Shown: positions 1,148-35,694, numbered from the stretch's first letter. The stretch is DNA of 64,000 nucleotides from Candidatus Cloacimonadales bacterium (GCA_963665815.1 OY762463.1:3616001-3680000); one strand, 5' to 3'. The notes: generated by a model not told the origin, from the sequence alone. Made by a program: numbers and translations.

Positions 1148-1165
1148 ATTACTCCCTTAAATGAA

Positions 1166-11904: not shown

Positions 11905-14900
11905 ATGAGTAAGAAGCTAGTTTCAATAATCTTACTAACTTTTGCATTCTTTGCTTTGCATGCGCAGACTGCAGGAGGTCCGGATGCCTTCGGGTATTCA
12001 TGGCGAAACAGCAATGATCCGAGTGGTCCAACATATGGTTGGATAACTCCGGACACGGTAAATGGAAATCTTGTAACGGGACAGGCCGATGACAACATGG
12101 TCGGACCATTCCCTATAGGATTCCAATTCCCATTTTATGCTAACACCTATACTGATTTCTATTTGAGTTCAAATGGATTTATATCTTTCTCAGGTGATTC
12201 AAACAGTCTTTCTAACTATACAATTCCAACTTCCGGAACCCCAAATGCTTTTATCGCGTGGTTCTGGGATGATATGGACCCTGTAAGTTCTTCAACGCCA
12301 GCAAACAATGCAACAGTGATATACGAAAATATTACTGTTGACAATGCTAATGCTATGTTGATCTCTTTTGTTAATTATCATGAATATCCTGGTGAAAATG
12401 CTGGTTATGTAGATTGTCAAGTAATACTGAAAGCCAATGGTGAAATTATTATTCAGTATGATCATATTGATAATTCAATTGATAGAAATGGTTGTACAGT
12501 TGGTATTGAGAACAGTGTCGGTACAATTGGTCTTGAATATCTATTCAACAATGGAGCAAACTTCAGTGATCAGCTTGCAATACGATTCTACACAATCGAA
12601 CCGGGTTATCCTGAGTTTCCAAGAAATGCAAGTCCTGCAGATAATTCACAAGGTGTTGCTGTAAATGGCAACCTCACATGGGATTTCGGTGCTGATACCG
12701 ACAGCTATGACTTATGGTTCGGACCTGCCGGAAACATGACACAGGTTGTAACCGGAGCTACTGCCGGAGCTAATGCTTCATATGCATACACCGGATTAAA
12801 TACTCTTACAGATTACGAATGGCAAGTTGTTTGTCATAACACTAACACACGTTTGACAACTCCCGGATCTGTATGGGGTTTTACGACTCAATGTGGAACT
12901 GTATCAACATTCCCATTCAATGTAGACTTCGAAAATGGTGGAGCTGAACCATCATGCTGGAATCAGGATCCTGGCAACCTTGATCCATGGACTTTCGGAA
13001 CATCAACTCCATCGGTCAATACAGGTCCTCAAAGTGGTGACCATACTTCCGGCTCAGGATACTTCATGTATACTGAAGCATCAGGTAATCTGAACCAGAC
13101 TTTCACAATTGAATCACCGGTATTTGATGTTTCAGGAGCAACTTCTCCATCACTTGAATTCTGGTATCATATGTATGGACAGACAATGGGATCTCTTCAG
13201 GTCAACATACATAAGCTTACATCAAACATTTATATTAACGACGTTGTTCCTGCCATTTCAGGAGATCAAGGAGATGTATGGAATGTTCAATCGATAGACC
13301 TTACACCATATAATGATGAACCAATTGCAATTCAATTTATTGGAACAACCGGAAGTGACTACTATAGTGACATTTGTATTGATGATTTCTCAATCATTGA
13401 TCTTGTTAATCCTCCGGGATGTACAACTATAAATTTCCCTGTTAATATGGGAATAGATGTTCTTGAAGATGGTATGTTAAGCTGGAATGCTTCTGTAGCA
13501 ACTTCAGGATACAAAGTCTATCTTGGTACAGATAATCCTCCAACAAACATGATTGATGGTCTTGACGTCGGGGCCAATACAACATACACATATACAGGTC
13601 TTTCATATGCAACAAACTACTACTGGAAGATTGTACCTTACAATGCAAATGGCGATGCAACAGGTTGTCCTGTAAACAGCTTTGTGACACGTGGAGATCC
13701 TACAGTAACAACATATCCTTATACTGAAGATTTCGAAAGCGGCACAATACCTACTAACTGGTTAAATCTGACTGATGTTGACAATAATGACTGGACATTC
13801 ATTTCTAATCATAACTATGGTGCTACATTTGACCACACATCAGGTTCAGGACTTTTCGCTGCATTTGATGATGCCGGTGGAGATGACTGCTGGCTTATGT
13901 CTACAGTATTTGATATTACAGCATTAACTAATCCTAGTCTTGAGTTTTACTATTGGATTGGTATAGATACACAAGCAGCACAGGCTCAATCAGTACTTCA
14001 TATTGATATAATCTCTGGAGACAGTGTTTATTATGATGTTTCAACATTATCATATTCTTCTCACTGGACAGCTTATTCACTTGATTTAACTCCTTACAGT
14101 TCAGACAGGGTCAAAGTGTTATTCAGAGGAGAAGGAAGTTCATCAATTTACAGTGATGTGGCAATAGATGATTTTCTTATTCATGATATTAATACTGCAC
14201 CTGTTTGTAATACACTCCTTGCTCCAGCCGATCAGGCAACATTCGTAAGTATTGATGAAGTACTTTCATGGGATGGTACTCCCGGAGCATCAGGATACAA
14301 ACTTTATCTTGGAACAGATAATCCTCCAACAAATATTGACAATGGTACTGATCTTGGAAATGTATACTCATATTCATTACCATTCGTAAATTATGACACC
14401 GTATTCTACTGGTCAATTGTACCATATAATCCAATAGGAGAAGCAGCAAACTGCTCAGTAAGGTCTTTCACAACAAGAACAGATCCTACTGTAAGCACAT
14501 TCCCTTATAACGCATCATTCTCAGACCAATCCCTTCCTCTGGACTGGATTAACATGACAAATGATTCTGACGAATGGATATTATCTCCATCTCAAACATA
14601 TACATGTTCATCTGAACATACTGGAAATGGCGGAAACGCTTTAATTTTTGATGATAGTGGTACAGGTGTGGATTCAGCTGTTGTTCAGACAACTGTTTTT
14701 GATATCACCGGCATGACAAATCCTGTTGCAGCTTTTTATTACTGGATTGGTGTTCAGTCACAACAGGCTCAGTTGCAGTCTAACTTATACGTAGATGTAT
14801 TATCAAACGGTGTATGGGATTATAATGTTGTTTCCTATACATACACCGGAGCATGGGCAGTTGCATCTATTGACTTGATTCCGTATATGGGTAATGATGT

Positions 14901-17900
14901 TAAACTTCAATTACGCGGTGTTGGAACATCTAGTTTCTATAGTGACATAGCAGTCGATGACTTCATAATTTATGACGCAACTACCCCTCCTGGCTGTGCT
15001 CTTGCAATTAACCCACTTAATGGACAGGGAGAAGTTGTAGAAACCGGTTCTCTAAACTGGGCAGCAGCAATGGGAGCTACAGGTTATTATTTAAGTTTCG
15101 GTTCTGACAACCCTCCAACTGACATTGTTGATAATGTTGATCTTGGTAATGTTTTAACTTATGACTTTACAAACCTTAATAGAGAGACAACATATTACTG
15201 GTCTGTCACCCCTTACAATGGTAACGGAACAGCAACAGGCTGCCCTATATGGCACTTCCAGACAATACCGGACTCTGTTGTTACAACTTTCCCATGGGTT
15301 GTTACATTCGACAACGGTCAAATACCTATGTGGTGGGAAGATGATCCAACTAATCTTGATCCATGGTCTATAGGTTCTTCAACTTCATCAGTAGATACAG
15401 GACCGCAATCCGGTGACCATACTTCCGGTGGTGGACAGTTTATTTATACTGAAGCATCAGGAAACCTTAATCAAACATTTAAAATGAAAACTTCAGGATA
15501 CGATATTACCGGTTTAGTTGCACCTCAACTTGTATTCTACTATCACATGTATGGTCAGTCTATGGGATCACTTGCTGTGAATATCATCCAACCTGGTTCA
15601 GGAACAATTCATACTGATGTAATGACTCCTGTCACAGGTGATCAGGGTGATGTATGGAATGAAGCCGTTATAGACCTTCTTCCATACAATGCAGAACCAT
15701 TCATTGTTGAATTCGTCGGAACAACTGGAAATGACTTTTACAGTGATATCTGTATTGATGATGTCATTGTTTATGATAACACAATGCCTCCGGGATGTAT
15801 CTCTGAATCAACTCCAATTCACATGGCAATTGATGTTGTTGAATCCAGTAACCTTTCCTGGAGTAGTACTCTTGGAGCAACCGGATTCAATATCAGTCTT
15901 GGAACAGACAATCCTCCAACAAATATTCTGAGTAATGTAGATCTTGGAGATACATTAATGTATACTCTTTCAGGTCTCAGCTACTCAACAACATATTTCT
16001 GGCAAATTATACCTTACAATGACAATGGAACAGCTACAGGCTGTCCTGTATGGAGTTTCACAACTCGTGGTGATCCCACAGTAAACATATTCCCTTATGT
16101 TGCGGACTTTGACAATGGTACACTTCCACAATGGTGGTATGATGATCCAGCTAATCCTGCTCCATGGATCGTATCATCTTCAACACCAAGTGCAAATACC
16201 GGTCCTCAAGCCGGTGACCATACTTCAGGAACCGGTAACTTTGCTTATGTAGAATCAAATAACCACATAAATGAAGCTCATACACTTACTTCAACAGTAT
16301 TTGATATTACAGGATTACAGTCTCCTCAACTTGGGTTATGGTATCATATGTATGGAAATGACAATGGTTCTTTCCAGGTTCATATTTATCAACCACAATC
16401 CGGAACTTTGCATTCAGACGTAATGACACCTGTTAATGGTAATCAAGGTTCTGTATGGCAATGTGCAAACATCGACCTTACACCTTACGCTGCTGAACCA
16501 TTCGTTGTTCAAATGGTTGCTACAACCGGTCAAAATGGTCTCAGTGATATTGCAGTTGATGACTTTACTATCTATAGTAATACTGTACCTCCTTCATGTG
16601 TTACCCTTAACGCTCCTGCTGATCAGGCAGTTGAAGAGACCGAATACGGTGAACTTAATTGGAACAGTGTTCTTGGAGCAACAGGCTACAGACTGTTCTT
16701 CGGTACAGATAACCCTCCAACTGACATTGAAAACGGAACTGACATAAGCGACAGTACATATTTTGCTTTTGCCGGATTAACTTATGGTACAACATATTAC
16801 TGGCAAGTAGTACCTTACAATGGTAATGGCAACTCAACAGGATGTCCTGTATGGAGCTTTACTGTTCGTGGTGATCCTACTATCACAGCTTATCCATATT
16901 CAGTAGACTTTGATGATGGATCTCTTCCAACCTGGTGGTCACAAGACACAACTGATGATATGGACTGGACAATGAATTCAGGTACAACAAATTCGACTAA
17001 TACCGGACCTACAGGTGATCATACTTCCGGAGCCGGATATTACTTATACACAGAGGCATCCGGATATAACAATATGACAGCTAACCTCGAAACAAGACCA
17101 TTTGATTTTTCTAACAATGGATACCCTGTACTTTCATTCTGGTATCACATGTATGGACAAACAATGGGAACTCTCAGTATTGATGTTTATAGTCACACAA
17201 ACAGCAGCTGGACAAATGATTTCTTCTCAATCAGTGGAGATCAGGGTAATCAATGGTTAGAGCAACAAGTTGATCTGACAGTATTTGTTGGACAAACTGT
17301 TCACATCAGATTCAGAGGACATACCGGTGATAACTATTACAGTGACATCTGTATTGATGATGTCAGTATGCTCAATATGATTCCACCGGATGATGACCTT
17401 GCAGCATTGACTATAGTTGGTAATGCAACCCCACGAGTTGGTATTACAAGTACATATACCGTTACAGTAAGAAATATTGGTTTCAATGATCAATCTACCT
17501 ACGATGTTAAGTTAATGGAAAATGGTAATGAACTTGCAACTGTTACTGGACAGGCAATTACTCAAGGTCAGAATATTGATTTTGATATTGACTGGACTCC
17601 TACTGTAGAAGGCGTAACCGATATTTATGGTAAAGTCGTTCTTGCAGGTGACGAAGCAACACCAAATGATGAAACAGAACTATTACGGGTTGATGTTCAA
17701 CCTTCACAAACAGGTATTGCAGGTACAGTAACTGACGTACTTGGTAATCCTCTTGATAATGTTCAAATACTTGTAGAAGAACTTGCATCAGTTGTTTATA
17801 CTGATGAAACAGGACATTACGAATACCTGGCTATGCCACCTGAATCCTACACAGTAACAGCTTCACTTACAAATTACACAAGCCAGACTATTGGCGGTGT

Positions 17901-19074
17901 TCAAGTTGTTCAGGATCAGACAACCATAATTGATATTCAACTTGGTCAAGGTGCTATCATCAGCGGATTTGTAAGAGATACTTATACTAATCCGGTTCCA
18001 AATGTTGAAATGACTCTCAGTGACAGTACAGTTGTTTATACCGATGATTCAGGATTCTATATTATCCTTAATCTTCCAACAGCAACATTCAGCCTTACTG
18101 CATCAAAAGATGGTTTTGAATCAGTTACAACTGATAACATCAATGCGGTTGATGGACAAACTGTTGATGTTGACTTCAATATTCTTGAATTTGGTAGACT
18201 TCATATTGACTTCACATCAAATACAGGAAACAACGCCGGTGCTGTAGCTGTAATGACAGATACTTCTGACAATACAGAATACACTGCAACATCTGATGCT
18301 GATGGTAATATTGACATTGGTGGAATGTATCCCGGAACTTATAACCTTGTTGTTACAAAAGCAGATCACGATCCATATACACAAGATGGAATCCAGATTG
18401 TTGCAGGTGACAATACAGGCTTAAATGTTGATCTGTTTGAAGTGTTGATTGCTCCTACTAATGTAGAATGGATATCAAATGGTGGATACTTGAGATGGAC
18501 TCATGGTGGTAGACTGTACGAAACAAGAGCAGGCGATAATGATGTTCTTGCTGATGGTGAATCCTACACAGAAAGAGATTCTGATAATGAAGAAGACGAA
18601 CGTGCATTCCTTTATTTCAGAGTTGAAGTTGATATAGTAAATCAGACAACACAAGATACATTCTTTGTATTGCAGGGATTTGCTGAGAATGAAGAATTAA
18701 CAGCCAGAATTACAGCAATCTATGAAAGTGGAACAGCTGCAGCTCCTGATTATACATTTAATTATGTTGTTGCAAATGATCCTGATGATGTAAATCTTGT
18801 AACAGAACTTAAAGGTAACTATCCTAACCCATTCAATCCTACTACACACATTGAATTCTCACTTAAGAAAGCCGGAAGAGTAGAACTCGCTGTCTACAAT
18901 ATTAACGGACAGAAAGTAAGAACACTTGTAAGTGAAGAAATGGAAGCAGATAACCATAAGGTTACCTGGAATGGTAAAGATGACAGAGGAAACTCAGTAT
19001 CAAGTGGAGTATACTTCTACAGACTGCAAACCTCTGAAGTATCACAAACTAAGAAAATGCTGATGCTTAAATAG
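11905..19074 (+). CDS. Large secreted surface protein A: signal peptide, NIDO-like domain, 6x(Ig/FN3-like + MAM-like), CARDB-like, 3 carboxypeptidase-regulatory-like domains, FN3-like, FlgD-Ig/T9SS-like C-terminal domain
   Basis: Signal peptide ending ALHA. GGPDAFGY...IGF.FPFY...SNGFISF...IAWFWDD. MAM motifs TGP..DHT.G.G...YTEAS and FWYHMYG...GDQG..W...SDICIDD. Ig motif GTDNPPT...YYW...PYN..G...CP. C-terminus NYPNPFNP...WNGKD...SSGVYFYRL...KMLMLK. Confidence 0.88.
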   Translation: MSKKLVSIILLTFAFFALHAQTAGGPDAFGYSWRNSNDPSGPTYGWITPDTVNGNLVTGQADDNMVGPFPIGFQFPFYANTYTDFYLSSNGFISFSGDSNSLSNYTIPTSGTPNAFIAWFWDDMDPVSSSTPANNATVIYENITVDNANAMLISFVNYHEYPGENAGYVDCQVILKANGEIIIQYDHIDNSIDRNGCTVGIENSVGTIGLEYLFNNGANFSDQLAIRFYTIEPGYPEFPRNASPADNSQGVAVNGNLTWDFGADTDSYDLWFGPAGNMTQVVTGATAGANASYAYTGLNTLTDYEWQVVCHNTNTRLTTPGSVWGFTTQCGTVSTFPFNVDFENGGAEPSCWNQDPGNLDPWTFGTSTPSVNTGPQSGDHTSGSGYFMYTEASGNLNQTFTIESPVFDVSGATSPSLEFWYHMYGQTMGSLQVNIHKLTSNIYINDVVPAISGDQGDVWNVQSIDLTPYNDEPIAIQFIGTTGSDYYSDICIDDFSIIDLVNPPGCTTINFPVNMGIDVLEDGMLSWNASVATSGYKVYLGTDNPPTNMIDGLDVGANTTYTYTGLSYATNYYWKIVPYNANGDATGCPVNSFVTRGDPTVTTYPYTEDFESGTIPTNWLNLTDVDNNDWTFISNHNYGATFDHTSGSGLFAAFDDAGGDDCWLMSTVFDITALTNPSLEFYYWIGIDTQAAQAQSVLHIDIISGDSVYYDVSTLSYSSHWTAYSLDLTPYSSDRVKVLFRGEGSSSIYSDVAIDDFLIHDINTAPVCNTLLAPADQATFVSIDEVLSWDGTPGASGYKLYLGTDNPPTNIDNGTDLGNVYSYSLPFVNYDTVFYWSIVPYNPIGEAANCSVRSFTTRTDPTVSTFPYNASFSDQSLPLDWINMTNDSDEWILSPSQTYTCSSEHTGNGGNALIFDDSGTGVDSAVVQTTVFDITGMTNPVAAFYYWIGVQSQQAQLQSNLYVDVLSNGVWDYNVVSYTYTGAWAVASIDLIPYMGNDVKLQLRGVGTSSFYSDIAVDDFIIYDATTPPGCALAINPLNGQGEVVETGSLNWAAAMGATGYYLSFGSDNPPTDIVDNVDLGNVLTYDFTNLNRETTYYWSVTPYNGNGTATGCPIWHFQTIPDSVVTTFPWVVTFDNGQIPMWWEDDPTNLDPWSIGSSTSSVDTGPQSGDHTSGGGQFIYTEASGNLNQTFKMKTSGYDITGLVAPQLVFYYHMYGQSMGSLAVNIIQPGSGTIHTDVMTPVTGDQGDVWNEAVIDLLPYNAEPFIVEFVGTTGNDFYSDICIDDVIVYDNTMPPGCISESTPIHMAIDVVESSNLSWSSTLGATGFNISLGTDNPPTNILSNVDLGDTLMYTLSGLSYSTTYFWQIIPYNDNGTATGCPVWSFTTRGDPTVNIFPYVADFDNGTLPQWWYDDPANPAPWIVSSSTPSANTGPQAGDHTSGTGNFAYVESNNHINEAHTLTSTVFDITGLQSPQLGLWYHMYGNDNGSFQVHIYQPQSGTLHSDVMTPVNGNQGSVWQCANIDLTPYAAEPFVVQMVATTGQNGLSDIAVDDFTIYSNTVPPSCVTLNAPADQAVEETEYGELNWNSVLGATGYRLFFGTDNPPTDIENGTDISDSTYFAFAGLTYGTTYYWQVVPYNGNGNSTGCPVWSFTVRGDPTITAYPYSVDFDDGSLPTWWSQDTTDDMDWTMNSGTTNSTNTGPTGDHTSGAGYYLYTEASGYNNMTANLETRPFDFSNNGYPVLSFWYHMYGQTMGTLSIDVYSHTNSSWTNDFFSISGDQGNQWLEQQVDLTVFVGQTVHIRFRGHTGDNYYSDICIDDVSMLNMIPPDDDLAALTIVGNATPRVGITSTYTVTVRNIGFNDQSTYDVKLMENGNELATVTGQAITQGQNIDFDIDWTPTVEGVTDIYGKVVLAGDEATPNDETELLRVDVQPSQTGIAGTVTDVLGNPLDNVQILVEELASVVYTDETGHYEYLAMPPESYTVTASLTNYTSQTIGGVQVVQDQTTIIDIQLGQGAIISGFVRDTYTNPVPNVEMTLSDSTVVYTDDSGFYIILNLPTATFSLTASKDGFESVTTDNINAVDGQTVDVDFNILEFGRLHIDFTSNTGNNAGAVAVMTDTSDNTEYTATSDADGNIDIGGMYPGTYNLVVTKADHDPYTQDGIQIVAGDNTGLNVDLFEVLIAPTNVEWISNGGYLRWTHGGRLYETRAGDNDVLADGESYTERDSDNEEDERAFLYFRVEVDIVNQTTQDTFFVLQGFAENEELTARITAIYESGTAAAPDYTFNYVVANDPDDVNLVTELKGNYPNPFNPTTHIEFSLKKAGRVELAVYNINGQKVRTLVSEEMEADNHKVTWNGKDDRGNSVSSGVYFYRLQTSEVSQTKKMLMLK
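18065..18435. repeat. Near-identical coding tract shared by gene A and gene C (inverted copy at 32341-32711)
   Basis: About 2 mismatches in 371 bp by eye. Shadow ORFs 18020-18247 and 32529-32732 share an identical peptide, confirming nucleotide identity. Confidence 0.9.
18769..19074. repeat. 306-bp C-terminal-domain repeat shared by genes A, B (20162-20467) and C (31699-32004)
   Basis: Near-identical DNA encoding VANDPDDVNLVTELKGNYPNPFNP...KMLMLK in all three genes. Confidence 0.92.
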
Positions 19075-19084
19075 GCTTTAGCTG

Positions 19085-19171
19085 TTTACACCGTCCAAAT
19101 GGTCTTTAGACCTTTGGAATGATGTGTAAATTAGATTTCGAAACAGCCTCTCATTCGGGAGGCTGTTTTTT
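19085..19171 (+). terminator. Conserved 3' UTR of gene A: long hairpin then intrinsic terminator
   Basis: TTTACAC..TCCAAA.GGTC-ttta-GACC.TTTGGA..GTGTAAA, then AAACAGCCTC-tcattcgg-GAGGCTGTTTTTT. Confidence 0.85.
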
Positions 19172-19214
19172 ATCTACGCTTTTAGTAGATCGGTTGAGTG
19201 TGTGACGTAACGTC

Positions 19215-19329
19215 CAACTAACGTTCAGAGGCAGACTGTATACGTTTCTCCTGACAGGAGGAAAGATTTTCAAATGAAAATCAAGGAGGTTAATTACTTT
19301 TTACGATTTTTCCCAATAACTCAAGTCCC
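19215..19329. repeat. Dispersed structured repeat 'R', copy 1
   Basis: Direct repeat of 19942-20052: CAACTAACG...CTCCTGACAGGAGGAAAGATTTTC.AATGAAAATCAAGGAG.TTAATTAC...CCAATAACTCAA.TCCC. Confidence 0.85.
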
Positions 19330-19484
19330 TGCATATCTATTCTGATAGAACTGGGTATATGATGGGCGAGCAACCTGCTCCCTTTATCTTACTCTAATAA
19401 GTTCATCAAACTTATCATTCGGCATAGATCAATTAGTTTCTAATAATGGTTTATCTGCGGACAACAGTCTTGACTTAGTGAAAC

Positions 19485-19705
19485 ATTTGCATAATTGGTG
19501 TAGTTGACTCAATTTTTGAATTCATCAAATTCTGACTCAAAATGAGCTTCTCTGAAAAGCTTTTTTATTGAATCCAAAAATCACATCAATACTTTTTAAC
19601 CATCGTAGGAGTGTCCTGTTAAAAGATTCAATAAACTCATCTATATTTTTTTAATTTTTTTCATTATACCAAAACTACTTGATTATGCTATTATGCAAAG
19701 CTCTC
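19485..19705. repeat. Dispersed non-coding repeat 'S', copy 2, with about 70 extra nt
   Basis: Aligns to the reverse complement of 10393-10536, with an extra segment at about 19602-19670 bounded by ACC on both sides. Confidence 0.8.
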
Positions 19706-19941
19706 TTATTGCAAGATTTTAGATGAAATTCAGGCTATATTGGAGTGCATTGACTGATTCACCAGTGCGATGAGTAAGATCACAAGAAAAACTGTAGATT
19801 GTAACACAATTTGCACTTCTCTGTTTGTATTCTTTCAGAAACATCTAATGTTTTTCAATCATTCCAAAGGTGTTCCACATGAGTCAATCGTCCGGTTGTC
19901 TCTACGTGTTTTGGCAGAGAATTTCTAAGTATGTAAAGTCT

Positions 19942-20052
19942 CAACTAACGATCAGACCGTATAAGTTCCTCCTGACAGGAGGAAAGATTTTCGAATGAAA
20001 ATCAAGGAGATTAATTACGTTTCTACGATTTTCCCCAATAACTCAATTCCCC
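19942..20052. repeat. Dispersed structured repeat 'R', copy 2
   Basis: Direct repeat of 19215-19329; contains palindromes TTCCTCCTG-A-CAGGAGGAA and GATTTTC-gaat-GAAAATC. Confidence 0.85.
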
Positions 20053-20058
20053 TAAAAC

Positions 20059-20146
20059 AAAAAAACAGCCTCCCGAATGAGAGGCTGTTTCGAAATCTAA
20101 CTTACACATCATTCCAAAGGTCTAAAAACCATTTGGAAGGTGTAAA
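20059..20146 (-). terminator. Conserved 3' UTR hairpin and terminator of gene B
   Basis: Reverse complement is nearly identical to 19085-19171. Confidence 0.85.
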
Positions 20147-20161
20147 GAAACTGATATTGAA

Positions 20162-23100
20162 TTACTTCAGCATCAGCATTTTCTTAGTTTGTGTTGTTTC
20201 AGAGGTTTGCAGTCTGTAGAAGTATGTTCCACTTGAAACTGAGTTTCCTCTGTCATCTTTACCATTCCAGGTAACCTTATGGTTATCTGCTTCCATTTCT
20301 TCACTTATAAGTGTTCTTACTTTCTGTCCGTTGATATTGTAGATAGCAAGTTCTACGTTTCCGGCTTTCTTAAGTGAGAATTCAATGTGTGTAGTAGGAT
20401 TGAATGGGTTAGGATAGTTACCTTTAAGTTCTGTTACAAGATTTACATCATCAGGATCGTTTGCAACTTCTTCAAATGTGAAATCAAAATCTGGAGCTGC
20501 TGCGGTACCTGTTTCATATACTGCTGTGATTGTAGCAGTAAGTTGTTCTCCAATGTTAAATCCTGTCACTGTGAAGAATGTATCTGATGTTGTTTGATTA
20601 ATAATATCAATTTCAACTCTGAAATACATGAATGCACGTTCGTCTTCTTCATTATCAGAATCTCTTTCAACATAAGATGATCCTTCAACAAGTGCTGTTT
20701 CACCATCTGCTCTGGTTCCATAAATTCTGTCACCATGTTGCCAAACAAGAATACGATCATTGTTAAGCCATTGGATGTTTGTTGGAGCAATAAGGATTTC
20801 ATCAAGAGTAACATCAACAGGAGTATTGTCACCATTTACAATAACAATATTCTGTTGTTCGTGAATGTTACAGTCCGGAAGTGAAGCTGTAAGATTGTAT
20901 GTTCCCGGAAGAACCTCGTTGAGAAGAACAACACCGGTATCATCTGATGTTTCAGTATATGTGTTTGTTCCGTCAGTAAGTTCAACAATTGCACCGGTTG
21001 GTGAACTGAGGTTTGTTGTTATATTAACTGTGAAATGACCATATTCGTTAAGAATAATATCAAGATCAACAGTTGCATCCGCAGCTATAACTACGTTAGA
21101 TTCAGTTTGATCAATATAACCATCTTTAGTTGCATTAACAGTATATGTTCCCGGTGTAACCTGTACAAATGTGTAGTTACCTTGTGCATCTGTTGTTGTT
21201 GTAATAGCAAGTTGTTCGATTTCAACAAGAGCTCCGGCAACTTCAACATTAGCATGATCGTAAACAGTACCCATGAGGATTGCACCCTGAGTCATTGTGA
21301 AGTTTACGTCAGTAAGGTTGTCCTGAGTTACTACGACATTAGTTTGTGTATTGTTATCATAATTTGTCAAACTTGCAGTTACTGTATATGTTTCAACAGG
21401 AACATTAAGGAATTGATAGAATCCATTATTACCTGTATATTGAACAGACTGGAGTTCTTCAATCAGTACTTGAGCGTTAAACAGTGGGTTGCCGTTAATG
21501 TCACGTACATAGCCCTGAATACCTGTTTGTGATGCTTGAACGTTCACTGGAAGTGGTGCAGAAGCATCATTACCAGGACCTTCGTCACCGGCAAGAACAA
21601 CTTTACCGAAGATATTCTGATTTCCTTCCATTCCTGCTTGAGGAATCCAGGTGATAACATAATCATTAATCTGATCATGTGCAATTGTAGTACCTGCAAT
21701 AGTTCCGAGTTCGGTATCAGGAGCAAGCATAAGTTTTACATCATAAGTTGATTGTGTGTTAAGACCATTATTTCTTACGGAAATTGTATAATCTGAAGGT
21801 GATCCAACCATTGGAGTTGTGTTACCAATAACTGTAATAACTGTAAGATCATCGTCTGGTGGTGTTGTAATATTAACTCCAACATCATCAAGGTATAGGT
21901 TAGGACCGTATCCTGAAATACCATCAAACTTAAGATAGATTGTCTGACCACTATATGCATCAATATTTACGGTTTCCTGAACAAAAGTACCAGGAGCTGT
22001 ACTTTGAGCACCATCATTAGATTCAAACAGAGAATCCTGAATTGACCATACAACAGTCCAGTTTGATTGATCTGTTGATACTGACACTTCAAAAGCATCA
22101 TCCGGATATGAAGTATTGAATGTGTGTGACCATTTGAAAAGAAGGTCTGCGTTTCCTGTTAATGCGATTGGTGGTGAGTATAATTCAGCATTACCAGTGC
22201 TCCAGCTCCAGAAGTTTGCGAATATACTTCCTGAACCTGCATCTTCAGCCCATTGCTGAGTACCACCATAGCTCCAGCCACGTGGCTCAAGTGGGAATGA
22301 TGAGAAATCTTCTGTCCATGGGAAGTTAGTAACTGTTGGATCAGGTCTTGTTGTGAATGACCATACAGGGCATCCTGTAGCATCACCATTAGTGTTATAA
22401 GGTACTACAGTCCAGTAGTAAGTAGTATTGAATGCAAGTCCTGAGAAGTCGTAAGTTTGTACGTTACCAAGATCTGTTCCATTTTCAATGTTTGTAGGTG
22501 GGTTATCTGACCCAAAGAAGAGTTTATAACCGGTTGTTCCTCCAGTAGTATTCCATCTGAGTGTGCCCATTTCGATAATTTCATTAGCACCATCAGCAGG
22601 AGTATCAGCTGTTGAGCATCCAGGAGGTGTTGAAACGCTGAAAACAGTAGCATTATCAACGTAGAAGTTAGGACCATAGCCTGTGTAACCTACTACATCA
22701 ATGTATATCGTTTGTCCAAGATAACTGTCAAGATTGAATTCAGCATAAGTAAATGTACCTGGAGCAGTGTTCGCAGCTCCATCGTTTGAATCGAAGTTAG
22801 TTCCACCAAGAGTCCATTCCATGTTCCAGTTAACTCCATCAGTAGAAACTAATACTGCTGCAGAGTCTGTAGGATATGTAGTGCTGTATAAGTGAGACCA
22901 GTTGAAACCAAAGCTGTAAGAACCTGTAGCAGGGAGGGCTATTGGAGGTGTAACCATATGAGCTTCACCATCGCTCCAACCCCAGAAATTACAGTATGCG
23001 GATCCTGATCCTGAATCTTCTGCCCACAGTCTTGATCCAGCAAAGACCCAGTCTTGTAGTGGCCATACGCTGAAATCTTCAGTCCATGGGAAAGTAGATA

Positions 23101-25627: not shown

Positions 25628-25752
25628 ACTGATCCTCCTTTGTTTAGTTTGCATGCTAAGAGTAAAATTTGTTTTTTTGTAAAATGTAGTCAAATATTAA
25701 GATGGATATTTTTACTTATTGAAGTGTAAATGTATAATCAGAGCGACACTAT

Positions 25753-27698: not shown

Positions 27699-27870
27699 GA
27701 TACTCTCAATGTTTGTAGATAAAAATCTGATGAGTTTCATCAGCTTTCAATTTATTCTCAAAAGTGTTTTTTTAATGAATATGTCAAGGTACAAAATGGA
27801 GTTCCGAATAATCAGCATTTTTTATTGACTTTTTTGGGCAGTACTCAATATGTTTTTTCAGGAGAAAAAT

Positions 27871-28578
27871 ATGAAAAAGACTTTTTTACTGCTGGCACTG
27901 TTTTCAGTGCTGTTATGGGGCTGCAAAAGCAGTGGATCTACAGAACCATCAGGGAACAACAATTCTTCGGATTTTTCTGATTATGACTATCAGCTGGATT
28001 TGAGTATTGTACAAGTACCTTACATGGATGGGCTGAGAAGTTATGGATATACTGATATTTTCATGAGATGTAAGGATGATACGGAGTTAACTAATTTCAC
28101 CTGTACAATAAATGGTGTTCAATGCAGTACAGAATGGGTTGTATATACAATCTCAGATAAAAAAGGATACAATATCTGGGGTGTTGAAATGTTTGCTGAC
28201 TCAATATATTCTGTCAGTATTCAATCGGATGAACTCAATAAGGAACTAACTGTCAGTCTTCCATCTGCAACAGAAGCAGTCTGGCCGGTTGATTTTGATT
28301 CTGCTGGTGATTTTACTGTCAGCTGGGCATCTGATCTTGATTGTGAAGTTCAGAGACTTTTATTAACATGCTATGAAGATTCTTATGTGAATGGGATAGA
28401 GTTTAACTATGAAATTGATACTGCAGAAAGAGGATACACAATACCTGCAAACACAATTAGTTCATCATATACTACTCAGGAGTTTGAACTGAGAAGAATA
28501 AATTTCAAAGCATCCGGAGAATTTGTTCTCACGGCAAGGATAGTTGATAAGTTTTCATATTCGTGTATAATCTGCTGA
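27871..28578 (+). CDS. Hypothetical lipoprotein
   Basis: RBS AGGAG; MKKTFLLLALFSVLLWG-C lipobox-like signal followed by a Ser/Asn linker. Confidence 0.72.
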   Translation: MKKTFLLLALFSVLLWGCKSSGSTEPSGNNNSSDFSDYDYQLDLSIVQVPYMDGLRSYGYTDIFMRCKDDTELTNFTCTINGVQCSTEWVVYTISDKKGYNIWGVEMFADSIYSVSIQSDELNKELTVSLPSATEAVWPVDFDSAGDFTVSWASDLDCEVQRLLLTCYEDSYVNGIEFNYEIDTAERGYTIPANTISSSYTTQEFELRRINFKASGEFVLTARIVDKFSYSCIIC

Positions 28579-28657
28579 TTTCACTACATGGAAGCGTGAC
28601 TTCCTTAAGAATGAAACTGTAATAAATGCTGTTAATTTGATTTTAGTATTATAAATG

Positions 28658-28685
28658 AAAAGCCTGCTGTATGACCAGCAGGCTT
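28658..28685 (-). terminator. Intrinsic terminator between the convergent lipoprotein gene and leuS
   Basis: AAGCCTGCTG-tatgac-CAGCAGGCTT with an A-run on the left. Confidence 0.68.
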
Positions 28686-28708
28686 CAACTTTATGTGATG
28701 TTATCGTC

Positions 28709-31189
28709 CTAATTTCCTGTAACTATACTTACCAGTTTCTTAGGTACAACAATTATCTTTCTGATTTCTTTACCATCAGTATATTTTTTTACATTTTCCT
28801 GAGCCAGAGCAAGTTCTTTCAGTTCATCCTGGCTGATAGAAGCGGAAACTTCAAGTTTTCCCCGTACTTTACCCATCACCTGAACAACATATGTGATTTT
28901 ATCTTTTATAAGGTAAGCATCATTATGTCTGGCAATACCATGTGTATGAAGCATTTGAGTGTGTCCAGCCATTTCCCATAGCTCCTCACAGATATGAGGT
29001 GCAAAAGGATACATAAGCTGAGGAATAACATTAATCGCTTCTGCAAATACCATCTGATCATCAGCAGAAAGCTTTTCAGGATTCTTTATGGCAGTAATAT
29101 TGTTAAGATGTTCCATTACTGCCGCAACAGCTGTATTGAACTGCATTCTATCCTGAATATCCTCATTAACTTTCTTTATAGTATAATGAGTACTGTATCT
29201 AAGTTTCTTCATCTTATCCGAAATTTCTTCACAAGGGAATGAAACTCTATACTCTTTTAGGATATCAATATTTTTATCAAATACTCTCCAAATTCTGTTA
29301 AGGAATCTGAATGCTCCGACAACACCTTCATCACTCCATTCCACATCTTTTTCAGGTGGGGATGCAAACAGCATGAATGTACGTACAGTATCTGCACCGT
29401 AACGATCAATGTAATCTTTAGGATCTACAACATTACCTTTTGACTTTGACATTTTAGCACCATCTTTAATAACCATACCCTGAGTAAGGAGTCTTGCAAA
29501 CGGTTCGTCTGTCTTCACTAATCCGAGATCACGCATGAATTTGTGGAAGAATCTTGCATAGAGCAGGTGCATGCAGGCGTGTTCAATACCTCCGATATAC
29601 TGGTCAACCGGCAGCCAGTAGTCAGCATTACCTTTGCTGAATGCTTCATTGCTGTTAGAAGCATCGCTGTAACGTGCAAAATACCAGGAGCTGTCTACGA
29701 ATGTATCCATTGTATCAGTCTCTCTTCTTGCAGGTTTACCACATTTTGGACATTTTACATTAACCCAGTCTTCAACAGAAAGCAGTGGATTTTGTGTAGT
29801 TTTTCCAATGGCTACGTTTTCCGGAAGTTCAACAGGGAGATCTTCATCCGGTACAAGAACTACACCGCAGTCATTGCAATAAACAACAGGAATAGGATTG
29901 CCCCAGTAACGCTGGCGGGAAATACCCCAGTCTCTGAGTCTGTAGTTTATTGTATTCCTACCTTTAAGCTGGTCTTCTAACCAGAGAGAGATTTCATCCT
30001 TAGCATCACTGCTTACTTTATTATTGAATTGTCCTGAATTAACCATTATTCCGGGTTGGGTATATGCTTCAACCATATCATCAAGTTCAAGATCACCTTC
30101 AGGAGTCTGAATCACTATTTTCATGGGGATATCATATTTTGCTGCAAATTCAAAGTCACGTTGATCATGTGCAGGAACAGCCATTACAGCTCCTGTTCCA
30201 TAGTCCATTACAACATAGTTTGTTACCCAGATCTGTACTTTATCACCATTAGCAGGATTAATACAGTATCTCCCGGTGAAGAATCCTTCTTTCACGGTTT
30301 CATCGGAAGTTCTGGCAATCTTATCTTCATTCATGATTTTCTGACAGAATTTTTTGAATTCACTGTCTTCCGGTTCTTCTTGAAGCCATTCAGAAACAAA
30401 TGGATGTTCAGGAGGAACTGCCATGAAAGTTACACCGAAAATCGTATCCGGTCGTGTTGTGAATACAGGGATTATTTTATCTGCTCCTTCGAGAGTAAAG
30501 TTAATTTGTGTACCAATACTTTTACCAATCCAGTTAGTTTGCATTGTTACAACTCTCTCCGGCCAGTCTATTACATTATTGAAATCAAGAAGTTCTTCGG
30601 CGTATTCAGTGATTTTGAAAAACCACTGCTCCAGTTCTTTCTGTACAACTTCTTTACCACATCTCCAGCATGATCCGTCTTCTACCTGCTCATTGGCAAG
30701 AACAGTCTGACACTCTTCACACCAGTTCTGGAAGGACTTTTTCTTATAGGCCAGTCCTTTTTCATACATTTTCTTGAAGAACCACTGTCCCCACTTGTAG
30801 TAGTCCGGACGGCAAGTACTGACTTCGCGGTTCCAATCAAACCCGAATCCCATACTCTCAAATTGCTTTTTCATGATACTGATATTATCTTCGGTGGTAA
30901 TTTTCGGATGAGAATTATGCAGAATTGCAAAGTTCTCTGCCGGCATACCGAAAGAATCGTATCCCATAGGCTGCATGACATTGTAACCCTGCATCATTTT
31001 GTATCTTGAAACTGCATCTCCAATAGAATAATTAGAGACATGTCCCATGTGCAGAGCTCCGGATGGGTATGGGAACATGGAAAGAACGTAATACTTCTTT
31101 TTATCTTTATCTTCTGTTGGATTGAAAATATTTTCATCTTTCCATTTCTGCTGCCATTTTTTTTCTATTTTATTGAATGGATATTCCAT
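28709..31189 (-). CDS. leuS: Leucine--tRNA ligase
   Basis: MFPYPSGALHMGH (HIGH motif), FTTRPDT editing domain, GTGAVMAVPAHDQRD, YIGGIEHA, KMSKS. Confidence 0.98.
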   Translation of the reverse strand: MEYPFNKIEKKWQQKWKDENIFNPTEDKDKKKYYVLSMFPYPSGALHMGHVSNYSIGDAVSRYKMMQGYNVMQPMGYDSFGMPAENFAILHNSHPKITTEDNISIMKKQFESMGFGFDWNREVSTCRPDYYKWGQWFFKKMYEKGLAYKKKSFQNWCEECQTVLANEQVEDGSCWRCGKEVVQKELEQWFFKITEYAEELLDFNNVIDWPERVVTMQTNWIGKSIGTQINFTLEGADKIIPVFTTRPDTIFGVTFMAVPPEHPFVSEWLQEEPEDSEFKKFCQKIMNEDKIARTSDETVKEGFFTGRYCINPANGDKVQIWVTNYVVMDYGTGAVMAVPAHDQRDFEFAAKYDIPMKIVIQTPEGDLELDDMVEAYTQPGIMVNSGQFNNKVSSDAKDEISLWLEDQLKGRNTINYRLRDWGISRQRYWGNPIPVVYCNDCGVVLVPDEDLPVELPENVAIGKTTQNPLLSVEDWVNVKCPKCGKPARRETDTMDTFVDSSWYFARYSDASNSNEAFSKGNADYWLPVDQYIGGIEHACMHLLYARFFHKFMRDLGLVKTDEPFARLLTQGMVIKDGAKMSKSKGNVVDPKDYIDRYGADTVRTFMLFASPPEKDVEWSDEGVVGAFRFLNRIWRVFDKNIDILKEYRVSFPCEEISDKMKKLRYSTHYTIKKVNEDIQDRMQFNTAVAAVMEHLNNITAIKNPEKLSADDQMVFAEAINVIPQLMYPFAPHICEELWEMAGHTQMLHTHGIARHNDAYLIKDKITYVVQVMGKVRGKLEVSASISQDELKELALAQENVKKYTDGKEIRKIIVVPKKLVSIVTGN

Positions 31190-31547
31190 TTATCCTCCAT
31201 ATTTTGATTTTACAATTGAAATGAGAAAATTGATACAACTCCCCTAAGGGAGTAAAAGGAAAATTGTATTGCGAATATATTTTTTATTTTGTATCATAAT
31301 GGTCAAAGAATTAGATTCCAGTATTTTGTCAATTATTTCCTATTTCAAAATCCACTCTCTCGATTTTGCATTAAGCCTTACAATAAATTTATAAATATCA
31401 AACATATAAAAAAGTAATTACATAGTGTATTAAAAAAAATAGAATATTTACGGAGGATTAGTGACCAGGAACAGGAAGCATGAAAATGGTGATAAGCTGA
31501 TGAAAGAGGAATATAGCTTTAACAAAGGTTGTGAATTGTTTAATAAT

Positions 31548-31594
31548 GGAGATTAATTCCGTTTCTACGGTTTCTCAAAATAACTCAATTCCCC
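31548..31594. repeat. Partial copy of repeat 'R' next to the gene C terminator
   Basis: GGAGATTAATT.CGTTTCTACG.TTT....AATAACTCAATTCCCC matches about 20006-20052. Confidence 0.75.
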
Positions 31595-31600
31595 AAAAAC

Positions 31601-31690
31601 AAAAAAACAGCCTCCCGAATGAGAGGCTGTTATAGAAGTTTAATTTACACACCATTCCAAAGGTTCTGAGACCATTTGGAAGGTCTGAAA
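31601..31690 (-). terminator. Conserved 3' UTR hairpin and terminator of gene C
   Basis: Same terminator (CAGCCTCTCATTCGGGAGGCTG on the minus strand) and TTCCAAATGGT....ACCTTTGGAA hairpin as genes A and B. Confidence 0.85.
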
Positions 31691-31698
31691 CATCTGAG

Positions 31699-34600
31699 TT
31701 ATTTAAGCATCAGCATTTTCTTAGTTTGTGATACTTCAGAGGTTTGCAGTCTGTAGAAGTATACTCCACTTGAAACTGAGTTTCCTCTGTCATCTTTACC
31801 ATTCCAGGTAACCTTATGGTTATCTGCTTCCATTTCTTCACTTACAAGTGTTCTTACTTTCTGTCCGTTAATATTGTAGACAGCAAGTTCTACATTTCCG
31901 GCTTTCTTAAGTGAGAATTCGATGTGTGTAGTTGGATTGAATGGGTTAGGATAGTTACCTTTAAGTTCTGTAACAAGATTCACATCATCAGGATCGTTTG
32001 CAACTTCTTCAAATGTAAATTCATAATCTGGAGCTGCAGCTGTACCACTTTCGTATATTGCTGTAATTGTAGCAGTAAGTTGTTCTCCAATGTTAAATCC
32101 TGTCACTGTGAAGAATGTATCAGACGTTGTTTGATTAATAATATCAATTTCAACTCTGAAATACATGAATGCACGTTCGTCTTCTTCATTATCAGAATCT
32201 CTTTCAACATAAGATGATCCTTCAACAAGTGCTGTTTCACCATCTGCTCTGGTTCCATAAATCCTGTCACCATGTTGCCACACAAGAAGCCTTTCATTGT
32301 TCAGCCAATGTATGTTAGTAGGAGCAATCAACACTTCAAGCAGATCAACATTTAAACCTGTATTGTCACCTGCAACAATCTGGATTCCATCTTGTGTATA
32401 TGGATCGTGATCTGCTTTAGTAACAACAAGGTTATAAGTTCCGGGATACATTCCACCAATGTCAATATTACCATCAGCATCAGATGTTGCAGTGTATTCT
32501 GTATTGTCAGAAGTATCTGTCATTACAGCTACAGCACCGGCGTTGTTTCCTGTATTTGATGTGAAGTCAATATGAAGTCTACCAAATTCAAGAATATTGA
32601 AGTCAACATCAACAGTTTGTCCATCAACCGCATTGATGTTATCAGTTGTAACTGATTCAAAACCATCTTTTGATGCAGTAAGGCTGAATGTTGCTGTTGG
32701 AAGATTAAGGAATAAATAATGACCAGTATCATTTGTATAAACTACAGAGCTGTCACTAAGTGTCATTTCAACATTTGCAACAGGGTTGTCGAATGTATCT
32801 CTTACGTACCCACCGATCATCGCACCTTGTCCAAGCTGGATGTCTACAATAGTAGTATGATCTTGAGTTACAACTACGCCTGAAACAGTTTGTGTTGAAT
32901 AATTTGTCAGTGTTGCAATTACAGTATAAGTAGCAGGAGGCATTGCAAGATATTCATAATGTCCTGTGCCGTCTGTATAAACAACTGATGCAAGTTCCTG
33001 GACAAGTACTTGAACATTTTCAAGTGGATTACCCTGTGTATCAGTTATTGTACCGGCAATACCTGTTTGTGAAGGTTGAACATCAACCCGTAATAGTTCT
33101 GTTTCATCATTTGGTGTTGATTCGTCACCTGCGAGAACGACTTTACCATAAATATCGGTTACGCCATCTACAGTAGGAGTCCAGTCAATATCAAAATCAA
33201 TATTCTGACCTTGAGTAATTGCCTGTCCAGTAACTGTTGCAAGTTCATTACCATTTTCCATTAACTTAACATCATATGTAGATTGATCATTGAAACCAAT
33301 ATTTCTTACTGTAACTGTATATGTACTTGTAATACCAACTCGAGGAGTTGCATTACCTACAATAGCTAATGCTGCGAGGTCATCATCAGGTGGAATAAGG
33401 TTAAGCATACTGACATCATCAATAGCTATATCGCTGTAATAGTTGTTTCCGGTTGCTCCACTGAATCTGATGTGAATGGTCTGACCAGAGAATGCTGTCA
33501 AGTCAACTTGTTGTTCAATCCATTGATCCCCTTGATCTCCGCTGATTGTGAATACATCATTAGTCCAGTTATTGGTTCCATGGTTGTAAACATCGATACT
33601 GAGAGTTCCCATTGTTTGTCCATACATGTGATACCAGAATGCAAGAACAGGATAACCATTATTTGTAAGGTCAAATGGTCTTGTTTCTATGTTCGCTGTC
33701 ATATTGTTGTATCCGGAAGCCTCAGTGTAAATATAGTAACCTGAACCTGTAGTATGATCCATAGATGGACCGGTATCAGTTGAACTTGTTGAACCTGTAT
33801 GTACAGTCCAGTCCATATCATCAGTTGTGTCTTGTGACCACCATGTAGGTATTGTTCCACCGTCAAAGTCTACAGTATAAGGATAAGACGTTATTGTAGG
33901 ATCACCACGGACTGTAAAGCTCCATACAGGGCAGTTTGCTGCTGTTCCATTGTTATTATATGGAGTAACTTGCCAGTAGTAAGTTGTATTATATGTAAGT
34001 CCTGCATAATTGTAGAATAAACTGTCTGCTCTGTCTACATCATCAAGAATATTAGTTGGAGGGTTGTCTGTTCCAAAGCTGAGTCTGAAACCTGTTGCAC
34101 CAATTGTGCCGCCCCAGTTCAATGACCCCATCTCTAAAACTTCCACTGCTTGATGGATAGGTGAGACTGGACTCACACATCCCGGAGGTGTTGTGTTATC
34201 ATAAACACTCACATCATCAATGGAGATATCACTGTAAAAATCTGTTCCGGTTACACCAATGAATTCAACAACGAAAGATTCAGTATTGTATGGTAGAAGG
34301 TCTACGGAAACATTAAACCACTGATCTCCCTGATCTCCAGATATTGGTTGAATGACATCTGAATGCAATGTGCCGGAACCTGGTTGCAGGATGTTTACCT
34401 GAAGAGTTCCCATTGTTTGTCCGTACATATGATACCAGAATACCAATTGTGGAGATGTCATTCCGCTAACATCAATAACTGGTGATGTCATTTTGAATGT
34501 CTGGTTGCTATTCCCCGATGCTTCAGTATACATGAAGTATCCTGAACCATTAGTATGGTCTCCGGATTGAGGACCTGTGTTTGATGAGGATGTTGAAGTT

Positions 34601-35694
34601 CCAAATGACCATGGGTCAAGATTGTTTGGGTCGTCGCTCCAGCAGGATGGAATTGCACCTGCGTTTTCAAAATCTTCAGTCCATGGGAAAGTATTGATAG
34701 TACCACATTGTGTTTCAAAAGACCACACAGCTCCAGGAGTTGTTAATCTTGTATTAGTATTATGACAAACAACCTGCCATTCGTAATCTGAAAGAATATT
34801 AAGACCTGTAAAAGCATATGATCCTGTTGTGTCTGCCTGAGCACCTGTAACAACTTCTGTCATATTTCCTGCCGGTCCAAACCATAAGTCATATGTGTCT
34901 GTGTCTGCACCAAAAACCCATGAAAGTGTTCCATCTACAAGAACTCCTGATGCATTATGGGATGGTGATGGATTTCTTGGAAATTCAGGATAGCCCGGTT
35001 CGATTGTGTAATATCTGATTGCGAGCTGAGCTGAAAGATTTGATGCATCATTGAAACAATACTCAAGACCAATTGTACCATCGCTGTTTTCCATACCAAT
35101 TGTACATCCAGCCAGATCAATACCTCCGTTGAAGGAATCATACTGCATGATTACTTCACCGTTTTCTTTAAGAATAAGTTGTGCTTCAAGATAACCGGAG
35201 CCTTCACCTGAGTATTCGTGATAGTTCAGGAAAGAGATCAATAAAGCATTAGTACCGTTAATTGTAGTGTTCTCGTAGTATATTCTGGCATTATGAGCTG
35301 GAGTAGTGGTACTAACAGGATCCAGATCATCCCAGAACCAGGCAATAAGATTATTCGGTATACCAGTCGTTGGGATAGTGACATTGGACAGAGTACTTGA
35401 GCCTGATCCAAAAGAAATGAATCCGTTTGAACTCATGTAGAAATCTGTGTAAGTATTGTTATAAAATGGAAAGTTAAACCCAATAGAATAAGGTCCACCA
35501 AATGAATCATCAGTTAAGGATGTAATCTGATTAGCATTAACTGTATCCGGTGCAATCCAATTGTAAGTCGGTCCGCTTGGGTCATTGCTGTTTCGCCATG
35601 AATACCCAAAAGCGTCCGGTCCCCCTGCAGTCTGCGCATGCAAAGCTAAGAAAGCAAAGAGGAGAAGGCTAAATAAAACTAGTCTCTTTCTCAT
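31699..35694 (-). CDS. Secreted surface protein C: NIDO-like, 2x(Ig + MAM), CARDB-like, carboxypeptidase-regulatory-like, FN3-like, FlgD-Ig/T9SS-like C-terminal domain; mosaic of A and B
   Basis: Signal peptide ...ALHA|QTAGGPDAFGY as in A; RBS AAGGAG; segments nearly identical to A and to B. Confidence 0.88.
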   Translation of the reverse strand: MRKRLVLFSLLLFAFLALHAQTAGGPDAFGYSWRNSNDPSGPTYNWIAPDTVNANQITSLTDDSFGGPYSIGFNFPFYNNTYTDFYMSSNGFISFGSGSSTLSNVTIPTTGIPNNLIAWFWDDLDPVSTTTPAHNARIYYENTTINGTNALLISFLNYHEYSGEGSGYLEAQLILKENGEVIMQYDSFNGGIDLAGCTIGMENSDGTIGLEYCFNDASNLSAQLAIRYYTIEPGYPEFPRNPSPSHNASGVLVDGTLSWVFGADTDTYDLWFGPAGNMTEVVTGAQADTTGSYAFTGLNILSDYEWQVVCHNTNTRLTTPGAVWSFETQCGTINTFPWTEDFENAGAIPSCWSDDPNNLDPWSFGTSTSSSNTGPQSGDHTNGSGYFMYTEASGNSNQTFKMTSPVIDVSGMTSPQLVFWYHMYGQTMGTLQVNILQPGSGTLHSDVIQPISGDQGDQWFNVSVDLLPYNTESFVVEFIGVTGTDFYSDISIDDVSVYDNTTPPGCVSPVSPIHQAVEVLEMGSLNWGGTIGATGFRLSFGTDNPPTNILDDVDRADSLFYNYAGLTYNTTYYWQVTPYNNNGTAANCPVWSFTVRGDPTITSYPYTVDFDGGTIPTWWSQDTTDDMDWTVHTGSTSSTDTGPSMDHTTGSGYYIYTEASGYNNMTANIETRPFDLTNNGYPVLAFWYHMYGQTMGTLSIDVYNHGTNNWTNDVFTISGDQGDQWIEQQVDLTAFSGQTIHIRFSGATGNNYYSDIAIDDVSMLNLIPPDDDLAALAIVGNATPRVGITSTYTVTVRNIGFNDQSTYDVKLMENGNELATVTGQAITQGQNIDFDIDWTPTVDGVTDIYGKVVLAGDESTPNDETELLRVDVQPSQTGIAGTITDTQGNPLENVQVLVQELASVVYTDGTGHYEYLAMPPATYTVIATLTNYSTQTVSGVVVTQDHTTIVDIQLGQGAMIGGYVRDTFDNPVANVEMTLSDSSVVYTNDTGHYLFLNLPTATFSLTASKDGFESVTTDNINAVDGQTVDVDFNILEFGRLHIDFTSNTGNNAGAVAVMTDTSDNTEYTATSDADGNIDIGGMYPGTYNLVVTKADHDPYTQDGIQIVAGDNTGLNVDLLEVLIAPTNIHWLNNERLLVWQHGDRIYGTRADGETALVEGSSYVERDSDNEEDERAFMYFRVEIDIINQTTSDTFFTVTGFNIGEQLTATITAIYESGTAAAPDYEFTFEEVANDPDDVNLVTELKGNYPNPFNPTTHIEFSLKKAGNVELAVYNINGQKVRTLVSEEMEADNHKVTWNGKDDRGNSVSSGVYFYRLQTSEVSQTKKMLMLK

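Follow-up and report, generated by a model that had tools for sequence, protein, structure and literature searches.

Evidence for interlocus gene conversion and concerted evolution in a dispersed family of type IX secretion cargo genes in Cloacimonadota

Three genes for large surface proteins in a 64,000-nucleotide stretch of a Candidatus Cloacimonadales genome (GCA_963665815.1 OY762463.1:3616001-3680000; here 'the window', with positions counted from its first letter unless given as genome positions) raise the question of how genes of one architecture come to be nearly identical in DNA sequence in some segments and strongly diverged in the segments between. Gene A (11905-19074, + strand; 2389 amino acids) encodes a type IX secretion system (T9SS) cargo protein comprising a signal peptide, an unassigned N-terminal domain, FN3, six MAM stretches, CARDB, three CarboxypepD_reg stretches, and a Por_Secre_tail C-terminal domain (CTD). 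Gene B (20162-25693, − strand) is an open reading frame (ORF) of 1843 amino acids counted from a TTG, with MAM, three CarboxypepD_reg stretches, and a CTD; its likely start is an ATG at 25627 that has an AAGGAGG site ahead of it. Gene C (31699-35694, − strand; 1331 amino acids) is the mosaic recipient of at least four conversion tracts, and genes unrelated to the family, among them leuS (28709-31189), sit between B and C. Pfam searches find repeated MAM, three CarboxypepD_reg stretches, and a C-terminal Por_Secre_tail in each of A, B, and C, and CARDB in A and C; for Por_Secre_tail (TIGR04183, PF18962), the C-terminal sorting domain expected of T9SS type A cargo, scores in all three exceed curated cut-offs. 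Each protein starts with a hydrophobic helix (residues 2-18) that ends in AQ and, judged by eye, is signal-peptide-like. The initial annotation of this DNA had assigned the three genes one architecture, and the ORFs lie where it placed them, with MAM, CarboxypepD_reg, and Por_Secre_tail in all; it had also proposed recent gene conversion or recombination between the paralogs, a proposal supported by the low synonymous divergence of the shared tracts and by sister-species orthologs that lack them. The explanation that we favor, at a probability of roughly 85%, is RecA-type interlocus gene conversion, with concerted evolution, in a dispersed family of T9SS cargo genes.

Comparison of C with its paralogs defines a series of near-identical tracts, all on the − strand in C, that are separated by diverged sequence. 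Tract A1 (33056-33351) differs from A 17425-17720 at 9 positions in 296 bp (97.0% identity), and tract A2 (32341-32711) differs from A 18065-18435 at 2 positions in 371 bp (99.5%). The 344 bp of C that separate A1 from A2 have 94 mismatches to A (72.7% identity), such that a single stretch of A (17425-18435, + strand) holds both donor tracts and the diverged segment between them. A B/P1-type tract (32060-32280; P1 is a paralog outside the window) has 4 mismatches in 221 bp to B 20523-20743 (98.2%), and a P5-type tract (33647-33750; P5 is likewise outside the window) has 1 mismatch in 107 alignment columns and is contained in a MAM domain. Across its pre-tail and T9SS tail (31699-32016), C is 94-99% identical to all paralogs in the same genome and belongs to a species-specific clade; over the last 319 alignment columns, the closest paralog is P2, with 7 mismatches (97.8%). 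These counts bear out most of what the initial annotation had reported for C: the approximately 2 mismatches in tract A2 are exactly 2, the diverged segment between the A-type tracts is there, and the switch to near identity with B is there, in the interval 32060-32280. The near identity that it had reported for tract A1 also stands, with C coordinates (33055-33350) that were one base out of register. Its account of alternating A-type and B-type residues fares less well for the tail: the six peptide motifs quoted for it are present, but a third paralog, P2, which has five of the six, explains them better. We conclude from the sequence comparison that C is a mosaic of A-type, B/P1-type, P5-type, and P2/P3-type pieces. 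In sliding-window identity plots the tract edges are sharp, and they fall inside domains: the P5-type tract lies within MAM, and tract A1 covers CARDB and the start of CarboxypepD_reg. Tract edges within domains fit homologous recombination, and not exchange of whole modules.

Run statistics and synonymous divergence support the tracts. When the final 2.9 kb of eight paralogs are aligned, the longest concordant runs of polymorphic sites comprise 169 sites for C and A, 82 for C and B, and 56 for C and P5; runs of these lengths were reached in 0 of 2000 site permutations for each pair, and their analytic probabilities are approximately 2e-24, 2e-31, and 1e-9, respectively. (A global permutation score was dropped, being swamped by the near-identical pair B and P1, and per-pair permutations and analytic run probabilities were used.) In the same alignment, runs of exact identity of at least 100 bp occur in 13 of 28 pairs within this genome (G000) and in 4 of 21 pairs within a sister genome (G001), as compared to 1 of 56 pairs between the two species. 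Synonymous substitutions per site (dS; Nei-Gojobori method) within tracts are 0.012 for C and A in A2, 0.106 for C and A in A1, 0.048 for C and B, and 0.045 for C and P5, whereas C-A dS outside tracts and upstream of the tail is 0.64-1.49. For C and its sister-species ortholog C', dS is 0.9-1.3 in the same tracts and ranges overall from 0.9 to saturated; relative to that ortholog, the B-type tract shows 0.36 nonsynonymous substitutions per site (dN). Synonymous sites thus are homogenized inside the tracts, as had been claimed, with values of 0.012-0.106 against 0.6 to saturated in the flanks, and dS along the genes is not uniform.

The sister genome, which is a single genome of the same genus and in which orthologs are marked by primes, places the exchange in time. 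A, B, C, P1, P2, P3, P5, and P6 each have a single ortholog in it. C shares 96-100% identity with its paralog within the tracts, as compared to 62-89% for C'; that is, the comparison with a related genome that the initial annotation had called for finds orthologs without the tracts. Segment trees show the same pattern. For the segment between tracts, C pairs with C' (support 99). The partner of C in tract A2 is A (98), within a clade of A and A' (98), and its partner in the B-type tract is B/P1 (97); tail sequences fall into one clade for each species (100). In approximately unbiased (AU) tests, all four tracts reject the grouping of C with C' (p = 0.0002, 0.038, 0.014, and 0.027), and the segment between tracts rejects the grouping of C with A (p = 0.0007), in each case for groups named after the tracts had been seen. 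Because C groups with a paralog in the tracts and with its ortholog between them, we conclude that DNA was exchanged after speciation, and because C is nested within the A/A' clade in A2, we conclude that A was the donor of that tract.

The exchange is not confined to A, B, and C. A BLAST search with the three genes against the whole 3.96-Mb genome identifies paralogs P1 (genome 1273307-1278037), P2 (1496200-1501758), P3 (3134847-3141113), P4 (3584869-3588841, approximately 27 kb before the start of the window), P5 (3602318-3607003), and P6 (3690307-3695040), together with more distant relatives P7-P10. The family thus has at least nine full members of 4-7 kb each, which lie between 1.27 and 3.70 Mb, a span of 2.4 Mb, and up to 13 related genes. 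A survey of the 13 related genes yields 20 pairwise tracts that are 95% identical or more and 80 bp or longer; for 15 of these the members have an identified ortholog in the sister genome, and each member is 75-89% identical to its own ortholog. There are several recipients, namely C, B, P2/P3, and every tail. The earlier framing as a three-gene locus was therefore too narrow: donors to C and B include P5, P1, P2, and P3, all outside the window. The longest tract is the P1-type tract of B (20162-23429, − strand), in which BLAST aligns 3267 nt to P1 with 28 mismatches (99.1%), concentrated at the 5' edge of the tract, such that B and P1, which are 2.3 Mb apart, are 99-100% identical over 3.27 kb. 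Over its middle part, B shares 85-97% identity with P1', as compared to only 40-47% with its own ortholog, B'. The match of the middle of B to P1 and P1', and not to B', gives the direction of transfer, from P1 into B. In the sister genome, near identity between B' and P1' (99.25%) is confined to their last 1473 nt and represents an independent homogenization.

Homogenization in the family has a polarity. It is complete in the tail and 3' flank and becomes patchy further upstream, and the 5' third of the genes shows none. At one extreme, the survey of 13 genes finds no tract of at least 95% identity in the 5' third, and orthologs remain closest relatives there, with residues 1-340 of C being 85% identical to those of C' as compared to 70% identical to those of A. 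At the other extreme, tails are 94-99% identical among all members in this genome, and homology extends 95-155 nt beyond the stop codon into non-coding sequence. The 3' non-coding flank of C (31557-31698, − strand) contains a hairpin and an intrinsic terminator and has its best match in P3 (96.9% over 129 nt); the flank of B (20000-20154, − strand) is 84% identical to that of C over 156 nt, and the flank of A (19080-19171, + strand) is 86% identical to that of C over 94 nt. The 3' flank folds as an imperfect hairpin followed by the intrinsic terminator, with a folding-energy z score of −4.9. An Rfam search of the A-B intergenic region and both 3' flanks returned 5 matches at E ≤ 1, all under gathering scores. 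Sequences 85-87% identical to the short hairpin part of the flank (approximately 36-41 nt) recur at four or five further genomic sites.

According to the favored hypothesis, dispersed family members would undergo non-reciprocal homologous recombination, probably in a RecA-dependent manner (recA is present at G000:2893730-2894701). The near-identical secretion tail and approximately 130 bp of 3' flank would supply the long identity from which exchange starts, and tracts of approximately 0.1 to 3.3 kb would copy the sequence of one paralog into another. The outcome is twofold: the 3' ends evolve in concert within each species, and upstream of them patchwork genes such as C form, in which dozens of amino-acid changes arrive in one step, a variety that may be of adaptive value. 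Several points weigh against this hypothesis. The three sequencing runs that hold the stretch are of one sample, which is probably the source of the genome assembly itself, and contigs built from k-mers cannot independently link both flanks of every identical tract. The groups compared in the AU tests were named after the tracts were seen, so that the p-values are optimistic. There is a single sister genome, and dS between the species is saturated, such that 'after speciation' covers a long span, although tract dS of 0.01-0.1 is small beside it. A donor is inferred for two tracts only, A2 and the P1-type tract of B.

Other explanations for the tracts account for less of the evidence. The reading that purifying selection or codon-level constraint alone, without DNA exchange, keeps the tracts alike gains something from the secretion tail, which is functionally constrained and is conserved at the protein level in both species, but we give it practically no credence: synonymous sites in the tracts and the non-coding 3' flanks are homogenized as well, orthologs under the same constraint differ by dS of 0.9-1.3 in the same tracts, and tail sequences group by species and not by gene. 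An artifact of assembly or polishing, in which repeats were collapsed or one paralog was corrected with reads of another, appears extremely improbable. The flanks of the tracts, at 60-80% identity, are too diverged for mis-mapping of reads; mismatches are scattered within the tracts (9 in 296 bp; 28 in 3267 bp); and the independently assembled sister genome has like tracts at partly different places. It is true that the nearest relative is a metagenome-assembled genome (MAG) and that the genome of the window may be one too, that the only runs holding the stretch come from one sample, a fourth run with the same species label having next to none of the words of the stretch, and that contigs of two of the runs break at tract edges. 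Nevertheless, k-mer contigs from the three raw runs, which as runs of one sample are not fully independent, carry every junction in C, and one contig of 1404 nt covers 32233-33636 without differences, spanning two tracts and the diverged stretch between them. In the de Bruijn contigs of the three runs, the alternative joints listed have short sides (23-53 letters), and the deviating letters seen in contigs, which are located in the tail common to eight paralogs, most likely derive from contigs of those paralogs. Import of the tracts from other strains, by allelic replacement after DNA uptake and not by copying from paralogs in the same cell, would have a precedent in the allelic exchange of surface-protein genes documented for T9SS cargo of Porphyromonas gingivalis (in the part of PMC5266723 available), and for the P5-type tract and the tail the transfer could have run either way. 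We consider such import very improbable: every tract finds its best match, at 97-100% identity, in a paralog of this same genome; the A2 tree places C within the clade of A and A'; the middle of B matches P1/P1' and not B'; and a search of metagenome contigs, in which 67 stretches fitted a pattern and 61 distinct loci were returned, yielded no conspecific donor sequence, the best of the 61 loci being 44% identical.

A different question is whether the exchange is programmed; that is, whether segments of a repertoire are copied at high frequency into expressed genes, such that cells differ from one another at their surfaces. The gene products are T9SS cargo exposed at the surface, at least three or four donors have contributed pieces to C, a single conversion replaced a block having dN of 0.36 relative to the ortholog (the B-type tract), the orthologs are unusually diverged (68.6% amino-acid identity for A and A', as compared to 82-98% for the flanking housekeeping genes), and paralog P4 has a frameshift in an A7 run, all of which would suit such a system. 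The organization of the family would not. Each of the nine members is a long ORF that has an AAGGAG site and opens with a signal-peptide-like segment, and 8 of the 9 extend intact to the full secretion tail, P4 alone being broken near the tail; no silent, truncated donor cassettes feeding one expression site were found among the nine; recipients are several, and not one expression site; tract edges fall within domains and not at module borders; and no recombinase, integrase, or transposase model of NCBIfam was matched by the 30 neighboring ORFs of the window, which hold no recombinase, transposase, or reverse transcriptase, in a search that did not extend to cis elements. The initial annotation had likewise seen no recombinase in the window; the likeness to antigenic variation that it drew is generic only, since silent truncated donors, a single recipient site, and a window recombinase all are missing. 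On balance, we regard a programmed system as quite improbable. A related idea, which we consider unlikely, is that the family constitutes a cassette-free combinatorial repertoire for surface variation, with the tail and the 3' hairpin-terminator as a shared recombination anchor. If this were true, tracts would run upstream from the anchor and continually shuffle the outer domains among at least nine giant surface proteins, and cells of one population would differ in surface make-up and might, for example, escape phages or grazers.

The favored hypothesis, interlocus gene conversion with concerted evolution, relates the family to several known systems. In cassette-type antigenic variation, as in Neisseria pilE/pilS, Borrelia vlsE, Anaplasma msp2, and Treponema tprK, mosaic genes arise when segments are copied non-reciprocally between related sequences for surface proteins, as they do here; unlike those systems, the present family lacks silent promoter-less cassettes and a single expression site, and the window encodes no recombinase. 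Classic cases of concerted evolution are the tuf and rRNA genes; whereas classic two-copy housekeeping genes are converted over their whole length, here at least nine members spread over 2.4 Mb are homogenized in a polar manner. Concerted evolution by gene conversion is known in prokaryotes (PMC6053082 and PMC8223754, in the parts available), and gene conversion can both homogenize sequences and create variety (PMC8223754, in the same part); the present family resembles such cases in that paralogs of one genome are more alike than orthologs and in that transfer is non-reciprocal. The closest parallel that we note is with rgpA, kgp, and hagA of Porphyromonas gingivalis, which, according to the available portion of PMC5266723, encode T9SS cargo, have identical repeats within and between genes, and combine adhesin modules, a diversity that its authors attribute to homologous recombination and gene conversion. 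Like those proteins, as described in that portion (PMC5266723), the proteins here are large T9SS cargo with a conserved C-terminal signal domain. Unlike those proteins, they come from a different phylum and carry MAM, CarboxypepD_reg, and CARDB, with no protease domain in the Pfam output, and the cleaved-adhesin (CAD) domain and DUF2436 are absent from the Pfam hits of A, B, and C at E ≤ 0.001; in addition, the tracts here cut through domains and do not comprise whole modules, and the evidence comes from two species, not many strains, with no known host or virulence context. The resemblance to the P. gingivalis gingipains and HagA thus lies in mechanism and not in family membership. Cloacimonadota are listed among the phyla that may have a T9SS (PMC11285876, in the part available). 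In the literature that we found, itself available in part, type IX secretion in Cloacimonadota appears only as a mention or a reference, and we found no work on Cloacimonadota that joins gene conversion with type IX secretion. Gene conversion in bacterial gene families is already known, and the present family is another instance, in T9SS cargo of Cloacimonadota.

The phenomenon is family-wide and ordinary in mechanism; what sets it apart is the demonstration in two species, the reach of 2.3 Mb, and the tail-anchored polarity. It provides a clear, well-controlled case of interlocus gene conversion from an uncultured phylum, and it indicates that the giant T9SS surface proteins of Cloacimonadota do not evolve as independent genes but as a family whose members recombine. 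Unless tracts of this kind are masked, they will distort the gene trees, orthology calls, and dN/dS scans made for such proteins, and they confront assemblers and binning tools with near-identical stretches of 0.3-3.3 kb that lie millions of bases apart. The polarity of homogenization suggests that the shared secretion signal may double as a recombination anchor.

Further features of the family and of its secretion route can be described from the genome. The frameshift in P4 consists of one extra A in the A7 run, approximately 140 nt before the stop codon, and removes the secretion tail; the gene may be a pseudogene or a switch prone to slippage, or the extra A may be a sequencing error in a homopolymer. 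Five ORFs on the same strand (1042, 486, 461, 245, and 194 amino acids; genome 1265698-1273032) end 275 bp upstream of P1. In a search confined to this component of the T9SS machinery, a 2065-amino-acid ORF of the genome matches SprA_N above the cut-off. Among 1044 ORFs of at least 400 amino acids, 135 align with C through both C-termini; the predicted T9SS secretome would be very large for a genome of 3.96 Mb.

The N-terminal region, in which orthologs remain closest relatives, contains a domain of its own. The first approximately 340 residues have no Pfam family apart from a weak NIDO match in A, a sequence search of the PDB with these 340 residues gave no match, and a language-model atlas gave weak leads for them (best score 0.80). 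Residues 232-333 fold as FN3 in the model (VIA Z of approximately 10; root-mean-square deviation 2.4-2.7 over approximately 90 residues). Residues 20-232 are modeled as a beta-sandwich domain (predicted local distance difference test score 90.2; predicted template modeling score 0.90), for which Foldseek gave no match at E ≤ 0.001 and the best VIA Z was 5.0; these results demonstrate neither a new fold nor a function. This N-terminal beta-sandwich of approximately 210 residues (34999-35637 in C) has an invariant GGPD..GY, W, and D.D in an alignment of 27 sequences. The same domain is found at the N-termini of A, B, P1-P3, P6, and P7, and Calditrichota, Bacteroidota, and unclassified MAGs likewise have proteins that contain it.

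The surroundings of the genes differ between the two species. In G000, approximately 41 kb holding A and B separate P5 from an inverted C, whereas in G001, P5' and C' are tandem neighbors with leuS' after C', A' and B' are approximately 120 kb apart, and the PGA_cap gene is near A'. An inversion mediated by paralogs was considered for this difference in gene order around A, B, C, and P5 and was rejected, as breakpoints could not be placed inside family members. Directly upstream of C, at 36068-39058, lies the PGA_cap gene of G000, a 996-amino-acid T9SS cargo gene with PKD and PGA_cap, of which only the tail is related to the family. Upstream of B are genes for a glycosyltransferase and an LPG_synthase_TM-like membrane protein, and genes adjoining B, considered as T9SS partners, were rejected on the basis of these products. 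The start of the window (2-5178) contains a CheW gene and genes for two methyl-accepting chemotaxis-type proteins.

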